Positions 3,600 through 62,079 of a stretch of 64,000 nucleotides of DNA are shown here, piece by piece. Positions within the stretch are counted from its first letter, which is position 1. The number at the start of each line of letters is the position of its first letter. Source of the stretch: Podarcis liolepis. Lineage: Eukaryota. The notes beneath the pieces are model-generated. The model ran no database searches. It saw only the letters and a list, made by a program, of their open reading frames with translations, and was not told the DNA's origin. The DNA is taken from NCBI GenBank assembly GCA_965112155.1, contig OZ218105.1; one strand, written 5' to 3'. The position numbers and the translations under genes are program-made.

Positions 3600-4050
3600 A
3601 TTATTATTATTCCTCCACCATATTCAGCTGCATGTATCGTTTCAGTCCCTGCCATGATTTTGGAGAGGGCTGCAAACTCTTGTTCATTGCAGCCTTTCAT
3701 CCTAAATGGAAAAATAACCACCAGTCAAAGTTGTTGTTGTTTTCAGAAAGCTTTCATTATGACAGATGTAACCATTTTTGGTTTTTCCCCCCAGAAGGAT
3801 AATTACATTGATTTAGTGCCAATTTAAAAACACTGAGTAATGGGAGCTTCTTGTTTCCCTCTTTTCTTGCTGTGACATTAAACTAGTCATGGACTGAAAG
3901 CCTTATTTCAGTGCATACACCTTCAATTTTGTTTATTTACTGTGGATTAACTGGCACAGCATATCTGACACAAATCCATTTTAATACTCTCCTTCGACCT
4001 ACTCCCACCTTCAATCTCATATTTCCTCCCCCTCTTCTCTTCCCTATAAG

Positions 4051-28989: not shown

Positions 28990-29534
28990 CAGTGGCATCG
29001 CAATGGGGGTGGGGGCGGTGTGCCCCGGGTGCCATGTCTGGGGGGACAACAAGAAGGCAGCCTGCGGGGGCTCGCCCCGCTGCGGTGGCACGAGCAGCCA
29101 TCGCACCGCTGCAGCCACATTGTGGAGGATCCTCCATTCGTGGATGCAGCCACAAGCAGAGGATCCTGGTGCCAGTGGCAAACCGCTATGTACAGCGCAT
29201 GTGCGGCATCACATGCATGCTCTGTACATAACGACGATGCCCATGCGCTGTACATAGCGGTTTGCCGCCGGCGCCGCTCAAGCGCCATATGGACAGTGGT
29301 GGGATCCTTCCGTCGCCGCTGCAGCCGCATGTAGAGGATCCTTCGTTCATGGCTGCAGCCACGAGCAGAGGATCCCGGTACTGTCCATAAGGCGCTGGAG
29401 CGGCGCCGCTGGCAAACTGCTATGTATAGCGCATATGCGGCACTGCTACGTTGCGTTGTACGTAGTGACACTGCACATGCGCCCTTCGTAGCGATGCCCC
29501 ACCCTGGGTATCACGATGCCTTCGTTCGCCCTTG
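28990..29534. mobile_element. Non-autonomous hAT element with internal inverted and duplicated blocks
   Basis: CAGTGGCATCGC start; perfect TSD TGTGGAGG (28982-28989/29535-29542). Confidence 0.85.
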
Positions 29535-36007: not shown

Positions 36008-36758
36008 TTGCATGATGAGGCCCCAGGCCCCACAGTTCCCTCAGAAATAAGCACACAGACATGAATATGTTGGGTTAATGGGATAAATTAGGCCCCAACG
36101 TTATTGCTTACAGATGTGAGCAGTCTGGCTTAGGCAATTGGATGAAGCAAGACTATGTTCTGAATCCTGCCCATCTGCAGGGGTCCCATAAGGGTCAACC
36201 ACCAATAGGGGGAGCCCTATGGTATACATCAATTGAGTACCCCCAAGGTTACCGATGGGGTCGTGGCATGGCCCTAGCCCATGCCCAGGCTTCGGGCAGG
36301 AACCACACCCCTGGATCCTTTAACAGGATACCCTTAACGTGGAGAGCCAGGCCAGAGGCAACAACTGCCCCTCCCATGACAAGGCTTACCTAATGCCTAA
36401 CCTTACAAAGTTGTGACAATTGCTACTAGGTAGGCGAAAACCAAATGGCTGGTGCCAGTTTGCCAAGTAGAAAAATTCCTACCTGGCCTCAACAACCAGA
36501 CGACCGACATTAGTCATAGCAAGGCCATAGTCAAGCACACAAGAAAAGAGGGTGGGTGGGCTGGGAGATCTGAGGGAGGAGATGAATGGAGGCCACCCTC
36601 TCCAGCCACGCTGCGGTTTAAATACCACATGGCCACGCCCCCGGCTAACCTGATTGGTCAGCCGGGGGACGTGACATGGCAGCTGGGAGTCCTAATGATG
36701 TGGGCAGCATCCTTGCCCACAGCCGGGTCACTGGGAGGTCTCGGGTTGCCACCCGCAA
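36008..36758 (-). mobile_element. TSD-less LTR-like structured element, copy 2 (possibly DIRS/Ngaro-derived)
   Basis: TTGCG...TGCAA ends on the - strand; shares ordered conserved blocks with 45747-46473 and 59429-61226; CCAAT, GC box and TATTTAAA near its 5' end. Confidence 0.7.
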
Positions 36759-37882
36759 TGCTGCACCCCCCCAAAAGGGAGCCATTTTCTAAATACATTT
36801 TCTTTCAAAATTTGCATTTTTAGACATACATTATATTTATTTGGGGGTGAGTACTGCTTCAGAACATCCAGGAATGATCGGAATGATCTCATCAGGGAAG
36901 CATGTCTGGTGCCACCACAACTTTCAGACACCAAGAAACTCTTGGTTACCCATGCTTCTCCTCCCCAGCCCTCTGCAGTTCTGGGGCTTTCCCCAACTTC
37001 CCAGAATCAATTTAGGGGCAGGCATGGTAGGAAAGGAGAGGAAGCAAAGCCTTGTTGTGTTAGTGGGAATTGGCACTAGCACAACTGTGGCACTAACTTA
37101 GTCATGTTCATCAGTTTCAATGGATCTCCCCTTCAGTAAAAGTTCACTGACTACCACCCAATAATTATAACATCATAGTTTGTTTCGAAGGGCAGAAAGC
37201 AACCCATCACCAAAGGAATGTAAGTGCAGCTGAAGATGAACTAAAAGCACCCTGGCTTGTTGCGTTGTTTCCTGCTGTTTAATGCAGCAATTAAATTTAT
37301 GATGAGCTTTTACAAGTTCATAAAAAGTCCCAAATACAAATGCAGAAGAAGCCACTTCTCTAATAAGAGGGCACCTCCTCTAAGGATCATGCTTTTAACT
37401 GTTGAAGTATGAAACTTGATGTGTTGCCCATAACAACAACAAAGAAGAGTGCTAAAGGGGGATAACTGAATAGACTGGAGAGCCAGGGAGAGTATTCTTT
37501 GTAGTGAAGGCAAAAGGGAAGTGCCAAGGTTCTCTAAAACTTGTTTGTGAAAACAGCATGTGTAGACTAAACCATACACATTTATTAGTCAAATTGCTTC
37601 AGCAACATCCTCACTACAATATAACCTTGGTTGAGTCATTTGGTACCCATGAGCACCAAATGCATGCAGAGGGTTCTGAGAGCTTTCCCTCCTAAATGCC
37701 AGCATAGGTGCCACCTCACCCCACCTGATGATGCTCATAGGTGCATAGGAAGCTGCTTGATCTTCAGTCAGACCATTGGTCTGTCTTGTTCAGTACAGTC
37801 TACACCGAGGACCAGAAGTTTCTCATCCATGAGGCTAATTAGCCCCTTGAGGCCTCCCCACTTGGCCCACAAGGCCATTTTG

Positions 37883-44323: not shown

Positions 44324-45015
44324 CAATGGCATCGCAAGGGGGGGCAGGGGGGGCAATGCGCCCTGGGTTCCACGTCACGCTGCCGCATGTGGAGGATCCT
44401 CCGTTCGCAGCTGCAGCCACAAGCTGAGGATCCCGCCACTGTCCATACGGCATTCGAGCGGCGCTGGCGGCAAACCGCTATGTACGATGCATGCGCAGTG
44501 TCGCACACATGCACTGTGTGTAGCAACGCCACACATGCGCTGTACATAGTGGTTTGCCACCAGCGCCGTTGGAGCGCTGTACGGACAGCGATGGGATCCC
44601 TCCTCCCCAGCTCGCCATAAGCGGCTCCTGTTTTGCTGCTTTACAGTGAGCCAGGGAGGGGCGGATGGGAGCCACGGCTCCCCCTCCCTCCTTCCCTCCC
44701 TGGCTTGCTGTAAGTGGCTCTGGCTTTGCCAAAATTGAGCCAGGAAGGGAGGGAGGATGGACGAGAGCTGTGGCTCCCAAGAGGATGAGCTGCGCAGCTT
44801 TGCCAGTGCCTTGGCAAAGTAGCATAGCTCCCCCCCTTCCCCTGATGGCTCAGGGTACTTGGGAGTCATGGGGTGGGGGCACAGAGGCGTAGGAAGGGGG
44901 GCGGACATTTGGCGCCCACCCGCAACTCCCAAGCCTACCCCGAGCTGTTGATGTGGGGGGAGGGGTGACCCAAAAAAATCCGCACCGGGTATCACCTGGG
45001 CTTGCTACACCTCTG
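44324..45015. mobile_element. Non-autonomous hAT element related to 28990-29534
   Basis: CAATGGCATCGCAAG...CTTGCTACACCTCTG; TSD TAGAGAGT/TAGGGAGT; shared internal block. Confidence 0.8.
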
Positions 45016-45746
45016 TAGGGAGTTAGGGACATGCACACTGTCTGAACCCAAGAATGCCAGGTGAGCCTGTTCTGTTTCCCATCCTTTGTGCATTGATAGG
45101 AAGGTTTCACATGGACTGAACATGCTTAGAAGCTGTCTCATGATCAGAAACCTTGATAACTTGCTTGGGAGACTTTTTTTAGACCTTTGCACTAAGAATG
45201 TGGAAGTCAGGGATGGAGTGGATTAGGAGGTTGGGGTCAGGAGTATGGATGCCAGAAAATTCCTACAGAAACAGAAATGGTTGGTCTTTACTTATTTGTC
45301 CTTCATCCATAACAAAAATCAGTTCGGTGAGTACAATGGATGTCTGTCGATGCATACATGACTATGCTTCTCCCTCCCATTTGCACTGTGTTTCCTTTCC
45401 ATTGAAATGCATAGGTTGTCATAAAGTAATGACAACGTAACTTACAAACCTGAGTTATGGAAGTTATGCAATTTATCCACAGTGGACAGAAAGACAAGTA
45501 ACATAGTTTTTGGCAGAAGAACTGCAGCAGAATGGAAACAGTGCTGCGGGTGATGAATACAAGACAGAACAAAATAATAATAATCAATGTCTTCTGATAT
45601 CCCTAGTCAGGACACAACCTTTCCCCCCTGTCTGTTCTAGCTCAATGCTGTAATAGGACTAATATCCACTACGTAGGCTATGACACAGTTTATAGGTTGT
45701 GTGTATGAAACATTCCTTTCTCCCATACTTATGCCTTCAGCATGGG

Positions 45747-46473
45747 TTGTGAGAAAGACTCTCCTCCCTGCAAGAGAGGGGAGTGGTTGTGGCCGGGAGC
45801 CGGACTCCACCTCAAGCAGGGGGCGTTTGCCCCCTGCCTCCCACTCACCTGGCTGGCGCCCACGCCCTCGGCCAGGCACCGTTTGCGAGTCACCCACCCT
45901 CCACTCCCTTAGAGCAGGGTTCCAGTTTTCTTTTGGCCTTGCTATGGACCTTAGGTTGGTCGCCCTGGTTGTTCGGGGGGCCTGGTAGGAAATTTTCCAT
46001 TTGGCATTAGGCTTTTTGGTTTTTTCGCCTACCTCATAGCAATCGTCACAACTTTCGTGGTATTGGTGGGTAGGTTAGGCATTGGAATAATGTGTTGTGG
46101 TGTCGAAGGGCTAGGTGTGGCCATCGCCTGCGCCTTCAATTTTTGGGTATTCCGTTAAAGGAATCCAGCGGTCGTGTATTCTGTCCGATGCCTGCGTGGC
46201 GGGAGGCCATGGCACGACCCTCGGTGACATCAGGGGAGAGCTTGTAGTTGGATTAGCATCAACAGGCTCCACCTACTGGTGAATAACCCCCCCTTTTTTT
46301 TGACTCACCCCTCTCTGAGTGGGTGGAGTCAGCTGACGTAATCCAATGCCTAAGCCAATACCTTTTCACTTGCTGTAATCAATAAAGTTGTGGCCTTTTC
46401 TTGCCCATTAACCTTATATCACGTGTCCTTGTGTTTCATTCCACTGCGCGGGGTACGGGTCCTCGAACCACAA
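45747..46473 (+). mobile_element. TSD-less LTR-like structured element, copy 1 (possibly DIRS/Ngaro-derived)
   Basis: TTGTG...CACAA ends; AATAAAGTTGTGGCC at 46381; conserved blocks shared with two other copies. Confidence 0.7.
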
Positions 46474-48128
46474 TGCTGATGTTCAGACAAGTGTATTTTT
46501 TCTTCTCCACTGCCTCCATATATACTAAGCAGATCTCTTAATTCCTTCTATCTGGAAGATCTGGAACCACACCCTGGAGAAAAATCAGCTGGAAATTGGA
46601 AAGCATGAGGTGACTTTATAGCAAATTAGACTATTTGTCCATCTAACCCTTCAGGTTGTTTTTCAGCAGGTGAAGCTGACTCCTGGCCCATGAAAGGAAT
46701 GCTATGGGAAAATGTTCAAAATGGAATGTCCCTTTTTGTGGAGTTGAGTTGAGGAGAAACGGCATGATTTTTGTATGCCTGGCCATTGGGAAAAAGTTGG
46801 CCACACTACCCATAATTGAAATAAATATAGCTAATGGAAGCCATTGTCTTTTCTGTACTGGGCTGTATGTCAAACCTCCCACCCCTCTCATTTCCATTTT
46901 CAAGCAATAAGCAAATGTCAGCAATCCAAGAACGTCTGCAGCAATCCAATCTAATACACTTTTAAAGACTATTAAGCAATTAAAGATTTGTCACTAATGG
47001 CTTTTAAAACGAAGGGGAAGCAAAACAGGGAAACAAAAGAAGCTTGATACTCTAAAAATAGGTTACATGGTGTATTCCTTCAAATAAAACATCTTGTTAA
47101 CTTACACAGAAACATTTTGCTTTCATGCTTTCAATGATTTGGTGCTAATGAGGGATGCATTTCCTTAAAAAAAGAGAGATGATAATGTATATATTAAAAT
47201 ATGCACTGGGTTTATGAGATTATTAACCATTCACTAACTTTGCAAGAATAGGATTTCACACATAATGGAATTAGTGGTGCTGTCCTTTTCATTCAGTATA
47301 TTTGCTTGGTGGTGGCAAATGGATTAAAGTTGGCCATCTACAATTTATTATTATTATCATCATCATCACCATTATTATTATTATTATTATTATTAACATT
47401 TATATCTGACTTTTCTTCCAAGGAGCTCAAGGTGGTGTTGATGGTTCTTCTCCTCACTGCATCCTTACAACACTGTGTGGTGAGTTAGGCTATGAGAATG
47501 ACTGACTCACAGCCACCCAGTGAACTTCATGGCTAAGGCTGGATTTGAACCCTGGTCTACCAACTCCATTCATTCAGTCTAACTTAGCTCCAGTAGTGGT
47601 GGTTCTTGATCCATCTCTGACCACACAGAATGACTAGAGCAGCATTTTCAAACTGCTGATAACATCTGGACCACACTTCTAACCGAATTAAAATAATCAT
47701 CCTCACCTTCTCTCCTTTGGTTTGTTTTGGAACACCCCTAGGCAGGATCCCACAGGGTGAGGGCATATTTGGGTACATCTCTGCTTAAGGCAGCAGTACC
47801 CAGGTTCACCTCAGGCTTATGCAAGAGTAAGCCAGATGCTCCCATTGGGTCAAAGATGGTGCCACTGCTTCTCTCTGGAGGCCTAGCCTGGTTCAGGGGA
47901 TTCCTCCAAGCTGAAGCCACTTTATCCCCATCCACTCTGAAGTGAGGTCTTCCCTCTGCCAGCAGATCCTTCGCTGGCATGTGTAAGAATCCCATCAGTC
48001 TACACAGAGGTCGCATAGATGCTTATGCCACCTTGTTTGTTCACAGGCGCTTTGGGCTCATTTATTTATTTGACTTGCTGATTACAGGTAAGATCAATTT
48101 AGTGGGCAGGAATGGGGAATGTCTAGAT

Positions 48129-54345: not shown

Positions 54346-55066
54346 CAGTGATGGCGAACCTTTTAGAGATCAAGTGTCCAGACTGCAACCCAAAACCCAC
54401 TTATTTATCTCAAAGTGCCAACATGGCAATTGAACCTGTATATCTCTCCCCCCCCCCCATGTTTTTCACGTTTCTTCTTTATGACTGATGTTGTAATAAA
54501 TAATCCTTTGCATTACATTCTTCATTAAATTATTTTTCCATTGATATGTAATTTCATGGTATAACTAAGTGCTTTTTTTCTAAAATTGTTTAGGGGTACT
54601 CTCATTTTGACTCAAGAAAATCACCACGGGGGTGTGTGGAGCGCGTTCTGTGAGTGTGGCATGCTGCCCGTGGGGGCATGGCACCTGGTGCATGGGAGGG
54701 TGTGCAGCATATGCCGGGGGGGGGGCGTCGCGATGGCACCCTACCGGAATAGTGGTGCCAGGGACGGTCTGCTCCTTCCGCACCCCCATTCCTCCGCCAG
54801 TGACTACTTGGACCTTAACACTTCAAACCCGGAAATGAGTGTTCCAGTTTTGGAACTTTTTCCGGAACCTGAATGTGCTCTGTTCTGAGTATAACTTCCA
54901 CTTTGAGTGCCACACTTCAGTTTTCCTAGTGAGGGAAGGCGGGTCAGGTGGCAAGCGAGCCGCTGCCACAACAGCAACCACCCCCTCCTCCAGCTCTGGC
55001 AGCCCCGGCGCTGAGTGAGGGAAGGCTGAGCCAGGGCAGCAAGCGTGCAGGCAAGGGATGTTGCCG

Positions 55067-55112
<46 letters not shown>

Positions 55113-55756
55113 CAGCCTGCTCCCGCTTGTAGGCCACTTTTGATTGATGGGGTCTGTGTGGAGAGGGTACCAACGTTCAGATTTTGGGGCATTGAATTAC
55201 AAGAGGATTTGTCCTGGAGTGTCAACACAATGGGGCTTGTGAAGAAGGCGCAGCAGAGACTGTACTTTTTGAGAATACTAAGGAAAAACCATCTTCCGCA
55301 GAAACTGCTGCTTGCCTTCTATCACTGTGCCATTGAGAGCGTGCTCACTTATGGCTTATGTGTGTGGTACGGAAGCTGTACTACTCAAGACAGGATGGGG
55401 TTGTGCAGGGTTGTTAAGGCAGCAGAGAGCATTGTTGGCTGCCCACTCTCCACCTTAGAGCAGATTTATGCCACAAGGTGCCATAGAAAGGCACTGGACA
55501 TAGTAAAAGATCCATCGCATCCTGGTCACTGTCTCTTCGAGCTCTTGCCGTCGGGACGGAGATGCAGGACGATGAAGACAAGAACGAGCCGTCTTAAGAA
55601 CAGCTTCTTCTCCAGAGCGATCTCGGCCCTGAATGGGAAGCCCGGACTTTGAAAGTCATCTAATCTCCCTTGCTGTATTATACTGTATTGTTCAATTTGT
55701 GTTTTTATGGAGCAGTCAAGTAATTTCATTGTCCCCGAAGGGGGCAATGACAATAA

Positions 55757-59428: not shown

Positions 59429-61226
59429 TTGCGTGTTGAGTCCCACAAGCCACGCACCAAAAAATTCACACTTCACACGTGAATTTTGTTTAAGGTTTTT
59501 GGCATAATTTTGGCCACAACTTTATTTAAATACAAAAAATGTGAGTGGTTGCTTAGGCATTGGTTATGACTATCTGTCCTTGCCCTCAAGGACAGAGCCA
59601 GTGGCGTAGCGTGGGGGGTGCCAGGGGTGCCAGCCGCACCGGGCGCAACATTTTGGGGGGCGCGTTTGGCCGGCCCCCCTCAAGGAAGCGGGAACCTCTC
59701 CAAGGCACAGCGTGCCGTCGGTAGAGGAAAAAAGCCGAGCAGCAGCAGCAGCAAAGTCGGGAGGAGGAGGAGGTGGAGCGAGCCTGCTAATTCCTTGCAA
59801 AGTCGGGAGGAGGAGGAGGTGGAGCGAGCCTGCTAAGAATTCCTCGCAGCTGGCCATCCAACCTCCAGCGAAGGAGGGCCCCGCTCCACCTTCCGAGGGA
59901 GCCTGCTAGGACCCCCGGCTCCCTGCAGGTGGCTCACAACCCCTGCTAGCCCGGCCGGGGCTCGGGGAGGATGGGAGCCGCCTGCTGGGCTGGCACAGCT
60001 GCGTGTGAAGGCGCGGAGGGAGGCGCTCCCAGGGCTGCCGGCGGCCTTTCCCCGCACGCGAAGGAGCAAGGGCGGCGGCGAGGCTGCGCAACAGCCGCTG
60101 CGTGAGAACGAGCCCTTGCCCAGCCCGGGGGACGATCCGGAGGCCCTCTCCGAGCGCGTCGCGTGTAGCCAGCCTGCCAGCCTGCCTGCCAGGGTGGAGC
60201 AAAGCGGCGGAGTGGGGAGAGGTTGCCCTTCTTCGCACGCAACCCCCCCCCCGCGTCACGCCTTAAATCCACCCTCCCACAAACTAGGAGCGAGCAGCTG
60301 AGAGGGAACAGCTGAGAGCCACGAGCAGCTTTTTCTGAAAATGCCCTTTAAAAAAAAAAAATCCTAAAATTTATAAACCGCTTGACAGCTACAAAAGCGG
60401 TTTGCCAAGAGAATAAAACTGCCAGGAAGCAGTGGCGTAGCGTGGGGGGTGCAGGGGGGCCGGCCGCACCGGGTGCAACATCTGGGGGTTAGGGTTAGGG
60501 GGCGCAAATCCACGGGTTAGGGGGCGCAAATCCACAGGTTAGGGGGCGCAAATTACTTGCCTTGCCCCGGGTGCTGACAAGCCACGCTACGCCACTGGAC
60601 AGAGCTGGCCCTTCCGGACACCAACGGAAGCCAGCGTGGGAAACAAGTATTGGGTGAGAAATCTGAAACTGGGCAACAGTCCCTCACTTCTCACCCTCAT
60701 ATTCCGGTGGGGCTTGCACGGCCGCAGGTCCGACTCCGGGGACAAGGACAAATTGTATGGCAAGCCCCTGGATTCCTTTAACGGAATTCCCTTTCCGCAT
60801 CATTTGGAGGGGTAGGCACTTACCCCTCCAAGCACCAATTTAACCAATGCCTAACCGCCAACCTTACAAGTTGTGACGATTTGCTACGTAGTAGGCAAAA
60901 ACCAAATGGCACCAGCCAATCAGCCAGATGGCAAAATTCCTACTAGGCCCCCACACCAAGGCAGACGACCCCATGACAGGCAATAGCAAGGTCAAGCGAG
61001 CAAAACAAAAAACCACCCTATAAAAGGGCAGGAGGGCGGGTGATCCGATGCAAAACGGCCAAGAGAGCGTCCAACGTCTGGCCCCTATATTTAAGGACTC
61101 TGACCCCTCCCCCAAATTGACCACAATTCAAAACTCCCCAGCAACCCAATTTAACCACTTAAAGGCTTGGGTTCCTCACCAAATTTGCCTAGTCACTGCA
61201 GGGTGGCCTGTTCTTCCCAACCGCAA
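59429..61226 (-). mobile_element. TSD-less LTR-like structured element, copy 3 (791 bp after removing the nested hAT element and one TSD copy)
   Basis: TTGCG...CGCAA ends; AATAAAGTTGTGGCC on the - strand near 59511-59525; conserved blocks shared with the other two copies. Confidence 0.7.
59599..60597. mobile_element. Young composite hAT element with two left ends
   Basis: CAGTGGCGTAGCGTGG at 59599 and 60430, CCACGCTACGCCACTG at the right end; perfect TSD GACAGAGC. Confidence 0.9.
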
Positions 61227-62079
61227 CACGTGCTCTCTGTTATGGAGAACACGCTCTACCAGACTTTTAGACGACATCTGAAGGCAGCCCTGTTTAGGGA
61301 AGCTTTTAATGTTTGATGCATTACTTTATTTTAATATTGTGTTGGAAGCCGCCCAGAGTGGCTGTGGAAACCCAGCCAGATGGGCGGGGTATAAATAATA
61401 AATTATTATTATTATTATTATTATTCTGTGCCTCTTGGGCTTCCAGCACTTGCTACAGAGCATTGTAATCACCAGTCTTATAATTTAAGAGGCTGTTCTC
61501 CTGCACACCTGCCATGATAGGGAGCAGACAGTACAATTAACCACAAAAGCCTACATGTTTGATTTCCAGCTGCCTTTTCTTGAAGTCACACGGGCAATGC
61601 AGTGCCGTAGGATTGTGGCGTGTGGTGAGACTCTGCTAGTACTCGAATGGGTAAGAGTGAAGTTCACAAAATGCTAAATGAAAAGACAGTACTATCAGAA
61701 GGGGGTCTTTGTATCGAAACTTACTGCTTCCAAGTTTCCTGCATATTCAAGAGATGCTTAGTCTGTGCTTCAAAGCCTCCTGCGGTTTCTTTTAAGCTCC
61801 TCCCGCAAGCCTTGTGAAGCCACCGGGCTTCATCATTGAAAAACAGACAGCTGGTGAAACCATACTAAATGATAATCCGGGTGAAAGCTACCTATGAGAA
61901 ACTTTGCTGGATTTCCAGACTTTTCCCACAAGTGGATAAGGGAGGGCGAATGTCACCCTCATAAAGGTACATACACTTAGCCTGAAAAGGGACACAGACA
62001 AAGCTGCAGGCAGTAGGTGCCTCATCCATAGTTTTCCAGTGAAAACGTTCGATTTCAGTAGTACATTCGCCACCTCATG

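Follow-up and report, generated by a model that had tools for sequence, protein, structure and literature searches.

A U-rich hairpin in the LTRs of a lizard retroelement, a candidate ENE variant tied to its poly(A) site by predicted long-range helices

Three homologous LTR copies, found in a 64-kb stretch of the Podarcis liolepis genome (the whole of the DNA analyzed here, hereafter the window), carry a hairpin with a U-rich internal loop that the initial annotation had read as an ENE, that is, as an element protecting a poly(A) tail. Our analysis partly supports this interpretation, to which conserved long-range helices, predicted to place the poly(A) site beside the hairpin, add evidence. 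The reading that we favor, with a confidence only slightly better than even, is that the hairpin would act as a single-domain ENE variant, in which about four U-A-U triples would form with a tail delivered by long-range pairing.

Genomic Setting of the Three LTR Copies

The + strand of the window contains the 3' part of a cadherin gene (Pfam), the exons of which, located between positions 4050 and 40978 (+), are attributed to cadherin-9 (CDH9) by Pfam and protein match: the last of them encodes 161 aa with 100% identity to a cadherin-9-like protein of Podarcis muralis and 99% identity to the cadherin-9 of Zootoca vivipara, which identifies the DNA as that of a lacertid lizard. The vertebrate retroelement that had been proposed as the carrier of the hairpin is an LTR element, with the hairpin upstream of an AATAAA. 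Copy 1 (45649..46472, +) is a solo LTR of an LTR retroelement: 824 bp long, it has TG...CA ends, a poly(A) signal, and no internal coding sequence, and it is flanked by a 4-bp target-site duplication (45645-45648 / 46473-46476), although an alternative reading with a 6-bp duplication and an end 2 nt earlier fits too. It lies in sense to CDH9, ~4.7 kb past the stop codon, where its poly(A) signal could serve transcripts reading through from the gene.

Copies 2 and 3 are homologous to copy 1 (nhmmer E-values of 6e-41 and 2e-22, respectively) and have imperfect ends, local alignments between copies reaching 67-76% identity; the three hairpins are therefore not independent occurrences. Copy 2 (36013..36761, −) is a decayed LTR that sits antisense within the last CDH9 intron, with an identical 4-mer on both sides and a 5' end that is not TG. 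Copy 3 (59434..61228, −) consists of two pieces with TGTTG...CAACA ends, and its flanking 4-mers (61229-61232 and 59430-59433, −) differ at two of their four positions; both differences could be explained by CpG decay of a single target site. The ~1-kb insertion that splits it (59599..60597, −) ends in perfect terminal inverted repeats of 16 bp and shows an 8-bp duplication, features by which it would be a hAT-type MITE; a terminal segment of it is repeated near 60430-60488, suggestive of nesting. Beyond this insertion, copy 3 resumes at 59598, and its 3' piece holds, at 59513..59565 (−), an AATAAA (59521-59526) and the partner strands of the two long-range helices described below. All three copies are most likely relics, selection having acted in their source lineages.

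Among the 129 ORFs of at least 88 aa in the window, Pfam detected no coding domain of an LTR element or other retroelement, the matches being the cadherin exons, one ALKBH8_N domain, and two sub-threshold hits. The parent element may be ERV1-like or Gypsy-like, the window holding no internal region to tell them apart and a 4-bp target-site duplication being compatible with either. The ALKBH8_N match (E-value of 1.3e-21) falls in an ORF at 54933-55649 (+); this domain is often located at the end of LINE ORF2 proteins. Two related palindromic repeats, at 29106-29493 and 44379-44603, are probably non-autonomous DNA transposons.

Sequence, Fold, and Rarity of the U-rich Hairpin

The three hairpin sequences were each found where the initial annotation had placed them, at 45984..46033 (+) in copy 1, 36428..36484 (−) in copy 2, and 60889..60945 (−) in copy 3. 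When the copies are cut at these coordinates, the announced succession of stem, U-rich loop, and stem is the minimum free energy (MFE) structure in all three (-14.5, -17.0, and -19.9 kcal/mol). In copy 1, fold prediction delimits a lower stem (45984-45989/46028-46033, +), the U-rich loop (45990-45996/46020-46027, +), a 3-bp stem (45997-45999/46017-46019, +) followed by a small pyrimidine loop, and a top stem (46003-46005/46011-46013, +). Slightly longer sense pieces gave z-scores against shuffles of -2.1, -3.1, and -2.2 for copies 1 to 3, the value of copy 2 belonging to a different fold. On the antisense strand, copy 1 folds less strongly (z of -1.2), whereas for copy 3 the z-scores show no clear difference of this kind.

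Folded with its natural flanks, the hairpin has a probability of 0.98-0.99 in copy 1, 0.89-0.92 in copy 3, and 0.00 in copy 2, meaning that the U-rich fold is preferred in two of the three copies. All its pairs are possible in copy 2, where the prediction in context is another hairpin, a perfect one of 11 bp (36462-36487, −; probability 0.97; -23.7 vs. -19.4 kcal/mol) that excludes the U-rich fold. Since only 9 of these 11 pairs exist in copy 1 and 7 in copy 3, the alternative hairpin does not look like a conserved switch. We infer that copy 2, which also has AATAAC in place of the hexamer and two mismatches in one of the long-range helices (PA, below), has decayed after insertion.

A generic ENE descriptor, which asks for two runs of at least four U's and for two G-C-closed stems, the lower one no shorter than 6 bp and the upper one no shorter than 3 bp, and whose thresholds were set knowing the motif, returned three matches on both strands of the 64 kb, all of them these three hairpins, when 60 block-shuffled windows gave a mean of 0.25 and a maximum of 1. 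No further copy of the motif was found in the window, and five other one-mismatch matches to the 5' half of the hairpin within it all lack the 3' half. Matches to the end pattern in bacterial GTDB genomes served as a chance set: 8 of the 120 matches listed, with one visible mis-score, scored with this fold, against two of three here, so that, for given ends, a loop of this shape is in itself no rarity.

Within the loop, each strand bears at least four U's in all three copies, those of the 5' strand being predicted unpaired with a probability of at least 0.97 in copies 1 and 3. The lower stem ends in two invariant G-C pairs and the upper stem opens with an invariant C-G, above which the upper loop consists of 3x3 U's in copy 1 and, in the two other copies, of mixed pyrimidines (2x2). 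Between the lower stem and the 5' U-tract stands an invariant AA, extended by a third A in copy 1, and the loop has a likewise invariant G at its base. Facing this AA is CG or UG, which creates an A-C opposition in two copies and an A-U in the third, and thereby suggests a non-canonical extension of the stem: the AA and the opposite YG would probably stack as non-canonical pairs lengthening the lower stem. As for the possibility, raised at the outset, that the A's of the loop pair with the opposite U-tract and close it, the nearest-neighbor model yields an expectation of 0.6 cross-loop pairs in copy 1 and ~0.24 in copy 3, and the loop is thus predicted to stay open.

A compensatory base change had been claimed in all three copies; the G-C to A-U replacement is in fact present in copy 3 only. 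A second variable column reads A-U in copy 2, U-A in copy 3, and U-U, unpaired, in copy 1. Two-sided changes thus affect 2 of the 21 hairpin pairs, a score that 115 of 500 shuffles equal with only three related sequences, and the covariation of the hairpin is not significant. The pairing itself is maintained in 61 of 63 cells (21 pairs in three copies), compared with 28-56% in slid registers; 15 of the 21 paired columns are invariant, and the changes seen in the stems are either the two two-sided ones or wobble-preserving, with an A-C mismatch in none of the 63 cells.

A Wider Fold Predicted around the Hairpin

New relative to the first reading of this locus is a wider fold, in which conserved blocks of the LTR are predicted to pair into two long-range helices and a stem beneath the hairpin. 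The stem (P1, 45939..45945 / 46036..46042, +) comprises 7 bp, with 7/7 pairs in each copy; its probability is 0.89-0.93 in copy 1 (0.29-0.95 with other fragment ends) and 0.20 in copy 3. The junction between P1 and the U-rich hairpin is occupied by one or several variable side hairpins (45946..45982, +), where 43% of the positions are invariant. The 5' strand of the first long-range helix (PA, 46045..46055 / 46384..46394, +) begins 2 nt after P1, and its pairs can form at 11/11 positions in copy 1, 9/11 in copy 2, and 10/10 in copy 3; its probability in copy 1 lies between 0.34 and 0.97 depending on the fragment, rising to 0.87-0.97 if the RNA ends at the predicted cleavage site, and is 0.62 in copy 3 folded with its insertion. 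The second (PB, 46075..46087 / 46341..46353, +; probability ~0.9 in copy 1) pairs at 12/13, 10/13, and 13/13 positions in copies 1, 2, and 3, one A-U of copy 1 being a U-A in copy 3. The two helices span 270-350 nt. Inside the domain closed by PB, a small hairpin with a conserved A-rich loop (46149-46164, +; 36308-36338, −; 60766-60796, −) folds in all three copies, and its invariant runs (46154-46161 and 46163-46168) are among the best conserved blocks of the LTR.

Invariant positions are unevenly spread over the LTR: they make up 76 of the 94 positions of the paired core in the three copies, against 176 of 393 elsewhere, the core having been defined post hoc. A test on runs chosen solely for their identity is less circular in this respect. 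Nine such runs, at least 8 nt long and identical in copies 1 and 3, are mutually complementary over 11, 10, and 6 bp, which none of 2,000 letter shuffles and none of 2,000 random LTR pieces reproduced; for the twelve runs shared three ways, the same test gave 0/2,000 and 10/2,000 in the two nulls. Likewise, the duplex between the 5' and 3' pieces reaches -44.3 kcal/mol in copy 1 and -37.2 kcal/mol in copy 3, values attained by 3/3,000 and 2/3,000 random pieces of the window (themselves left uninspected), whereas the duplex of copy 2 is matched by 398/3,000 and is not significant. The whole architecture is the MFE structure of positions 45880-46425 of copy 1 (z of -2.9, equaled by 0/100 shuffles), the centroid structure being devoid of PA.

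Poly(A) Signal, Predicted Cleavage Site, and R Region

The hairpin had been located about 350 nt upstream of AATAAA, and 347 nt do separate its end from the hexamer in copy 1. This hexamer (46381-46386) overlaps the 3' strand of PA (46384-46394, the two together covering 46381..46394, +), its last three A's being predicted paired, with an unpaired probability of only 0.00-0.22 in copy 1. Downstream, a putative cleavage site with a GU-rich stretch following it can be recognized at 46405..46437 (+), where a CA ends 21 nt past the hexamer in the three copies, a position that would fit the spacing of 15-23 nt given in PMC12789967. This predicted poly(A) site is 13 nt beyond PA and, in the fold, ~15 unpaired nt from P1, and would be distant from the hairpin by sequence and adjacent to it in the predicted structure. 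The long-range helices would thereby bridge the 350 nt that separate the two, from which the ENE reading gains support. In addition, no run of four or more A's was found downstream inside the LTR in copies 1 and 2, which makes the poly(A) tail the likely third strand.

Consensus matches to a CCAAT box, a GC box, and a TATA-like motif, in promoter order, lie at 36617..36657 (−), 140 nt upstream of the copy 2 hairpin, and a TATA-like motif, again a consensus match, lies 149 nt upstream of the copy 3 hairpin; upstream of the copy 1 hairpin, no promoter motif was found. The motifs of copies 2 and 3 suggest that the hairpin may belong to an R region of ~500 nt.

Discussion

If the RNA folds in vivo as predicted, PB and PA would fold out ~330 nt of the element RNA and, with PA starting 2 nt from P1 and the poly(A) site lying 13 nt past PA, a new tail would emerge beside P1. 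It may then climb P1 and the lower stem and reach the loop from its base, running parallel to the U-tract of the 5' strand. Such an arrival fits the polarity of the MALAT1 triplex, a parallel one in which the 5' U strand serves as Hoogsteen strand and the basal helix carries A-minor contacts (PMC6379651). The two G-C pairs would receive A-minor contacts from the tail, which would then form about four U-A-U triples in the U-rich loop (three to four being possible depending on the register), and its clamping could slow the deadenylation of the intronless genomic RNA.

How far the hairpin resembles ENEs can be judged from their geometry. A U-rich loop between two helices is present, as are flanking G-C pairs and U-tracts on both strands; the 5' U-tract, in turn, does not abut the lower stem with extra bases confined to the 3' strand. 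Since one canonical geometric feature is thus absent, we regard the hairpin as an ENE-like variant and not as a confirmed member of the class. In outline it is built like the ENE of KSHV PAN RNA (PMC7583470, PMC13541005): both have a single U-rich internal loop with G-C-closed stems on either side, two extra nt on the 3' strand at the base, and a poly(A) signal downstream; 2-nt basal bulges are reported for PAN and MALAT1 alike (PMC13541005, PMC6379651). Unlike PAN, whose ENE makes five triples plus A-minor contacts (PMC7583470), the lizard hairpin has four U's in place of five, a 5' U-tract set off from the lower stem by 2-3 A's, a multi-way junction beneath it, and ~350 nt to the signal, bridged by long-range helices.

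ENEs do occur in LTR elements, some of them within the LTRs (PMC13541005, PMC7583470). The LTR host and the flanking G-C pairs are shared with the transposon ENEs of Tycowski et al. 2016, known from plant and fungal elements, Arabidopsis Evade, and stickleback retroviruses, the last of these as named in PMC7583470. The Evade ENE is functional, its U's and flanking G-C pairs being essential; in contrast to the lizard hairpin, its 5' U5 abuts the stem, its extra bases or bulge are on the 3' strand only, and it has no 5' A's (PMC12501189). It is moreover double-domain and located between the ORF and the 3' LTR, when ours lies in the LTR and has an upper loop of 2x2 or 3x3 pyrimidines. Double-domain ENEs are characterized by two U-rich loops, a short helix between them, a 3-4-nt bulge, an adenosine triad, and a pocket (PMC7583470, PMC13541005), and by its upper loop, mixed in copies 2 and 3 and all-U in copy 1, the lizard hairpin is not a clear case of them; interrupted A-minor stems are nonetheless known in that class (PMC7583470).

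With MALAT1 and MEN-beta, the hairpin has in common a U-rich loop on a short G-C basal stem, and lizards, anoles included, possess dozens of MALAT1-like loci (PMC10869381). A blunt triple helix of the MALAT1 type was considered and set aside: copies 1 and 2 encode no A-rich tract, ARAGORN, which may miss mascRNA-like folds, detected no tRNA gene, no Rfam family matched, and the loop is much shorter. Retroviral R regions offer a parallel of another kind, because the pairing predicted to hide AAUAAA in the lizard LTR, and the long-range fold by which the poly(A) site would come closer, recall the polyA hairpin of HIV-1 and the long R of HTLV-1 and BLV (PMC12789967). Unlike in these folds, the lizard hexamer stands at a normal spacing from the predicted site, and it is the U-rich loop, not the signal, that the fold would bring to the 3' end; the putative R of ~500 nt also exceeds the 15-250 nt given for retroviruses in PMC12789967.

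Other explanations of the conserved blocks deserve to be weighed against the ENE reading. The fold may be real and its U-rich loop a protein-binding site serving export, packaging, or transactivation within a long structured R, in the manner of a CTE, a TAR, or a Rex-response element. The invariant AA and G at the base of the loop do suggest specific recognition, the promoter motifs of copies 2 and 3 would place the hairpin in R, where retroviruses keep such signals (PMC12789967), and runs of U-U pairs can make an ordered helix without a third strand (PMC6633196); we nonetheless find this explanation unlikely, for it accounts neither for the four U's kept on both strands between G-C-closed stems nor for helices that place the poly(A) site beside the hairpin, and no matching Rfam family was found. 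Alternatively, the structure could serve to control the poly(A) site only, PA hiding half of AAUAAA and suppressing premature cleavage in the 5' LTR like the HIV-1 polyA hairpin, with the U-rich loop as a spacer. A signal located in R needs such occlusion at the 5' end (PMC12789967), the last three A's of the hexamer are predicted mostly paired in copy 1, and copies 1 and 3 both retain an unbroken PA, but the U-rich hairpin and P1, conserved as well as PA, are left with no role, so that gating by itself seems to us a quite improbable answer. Gating and an ENE role can coexist.

It could also be that the blocks are DNA-level factor sites, namely an NF-kB/NFAT-like GGAA box and two inverted CCAAT boxes (named after consensus motifs), or plain inherited sequence, with an incidental RNA fold. 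Each strand of PB does carry a CCAAT, in opposite orientations, in copies 1 and 3, and the many paired columns that never vary, as well as the lack of significant covariation, are in keeping with this view. Yet PA, P1, and the lower stem pair sequences that differ from one another and are not palindromic, the changes in the stems are two-sided or G-U-compatible throughout, and conservation is uneven, unlike neutral decay from one master, all of which makes an incidental fold very unlikely in our eyes. Hardly credible, lastly, is an internal third strand, in which the small conserved hairpin would dock its A-rich loop (46154-46159) into the U-rich one as a tertiary contact: it would give a role to a hairpin and loop that are conserved in three copies and otherwise unexplained, but with only three A's, in a 5-6-nt loop, from a separate domain closed by PB.

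Returning to the ENE reading, database searches brought no known relative. Rfam gave no match at the gathering score in the window, and in copy 1 four weak ones far below the threshold. In GTDB genomes, scanned for possible stray vertebrate DNA, the strict end pattern had no match and the loose one at least 120, none homologous to the LTRs among the matches listed (best E-value of 0.28); the phage collection contained no match. In the literature covered, the primary ENE catalogues being outside its scope, we found nothing on this lizard LTR element, its motif, or an ENE in an amniote LTR, and nothing related to a CR1 stem-loop motif such as the hairpin, a resemblance that the initial annotation had mentioned. 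A similar motif may have been described before, for instance in those catalogues. Most of the poly(A)-clamping ENEs described so far come from viruses or from transposons of plants and fungi, and the vertebrate cases of ENEs or triple helices named in the reviews covered are stickleback retroviruses, MALAT1, and MEN-beta (PMC7583470); viral ENEs and the two vertebrate lncRNAs are listed in PMC4378190.

More speculatively, and with little confidence on our side, the LTR could be a self-contained 3'-end device, in which a long-range helix would gate AAUAAA and pass the tail on to an ENE of a new class, distinguished by its AA/YG base; the 5' copy, within an R of ~500 nt, could also catch the tail and join the genome ends for strand transfer. 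If the resemblance to CR1 holds, the loop would be shared with CR1 LINEs, and poly(A) clamps would be widespread in amniote retroelements, where earlier searches would have missed them.

If true, the ENE reading would extend the ENE strategy to amniote retroelements, here to a lizard LTR family, and would show how an element located 350 nt from the 3' end reaches the tail. The A's on the 5' side of the loop could be what kept models based on known ENEs from detecting the lizard variant. Finally, solo LTRs such as copy 1 could lend a clamp of this kind to host RNAs.
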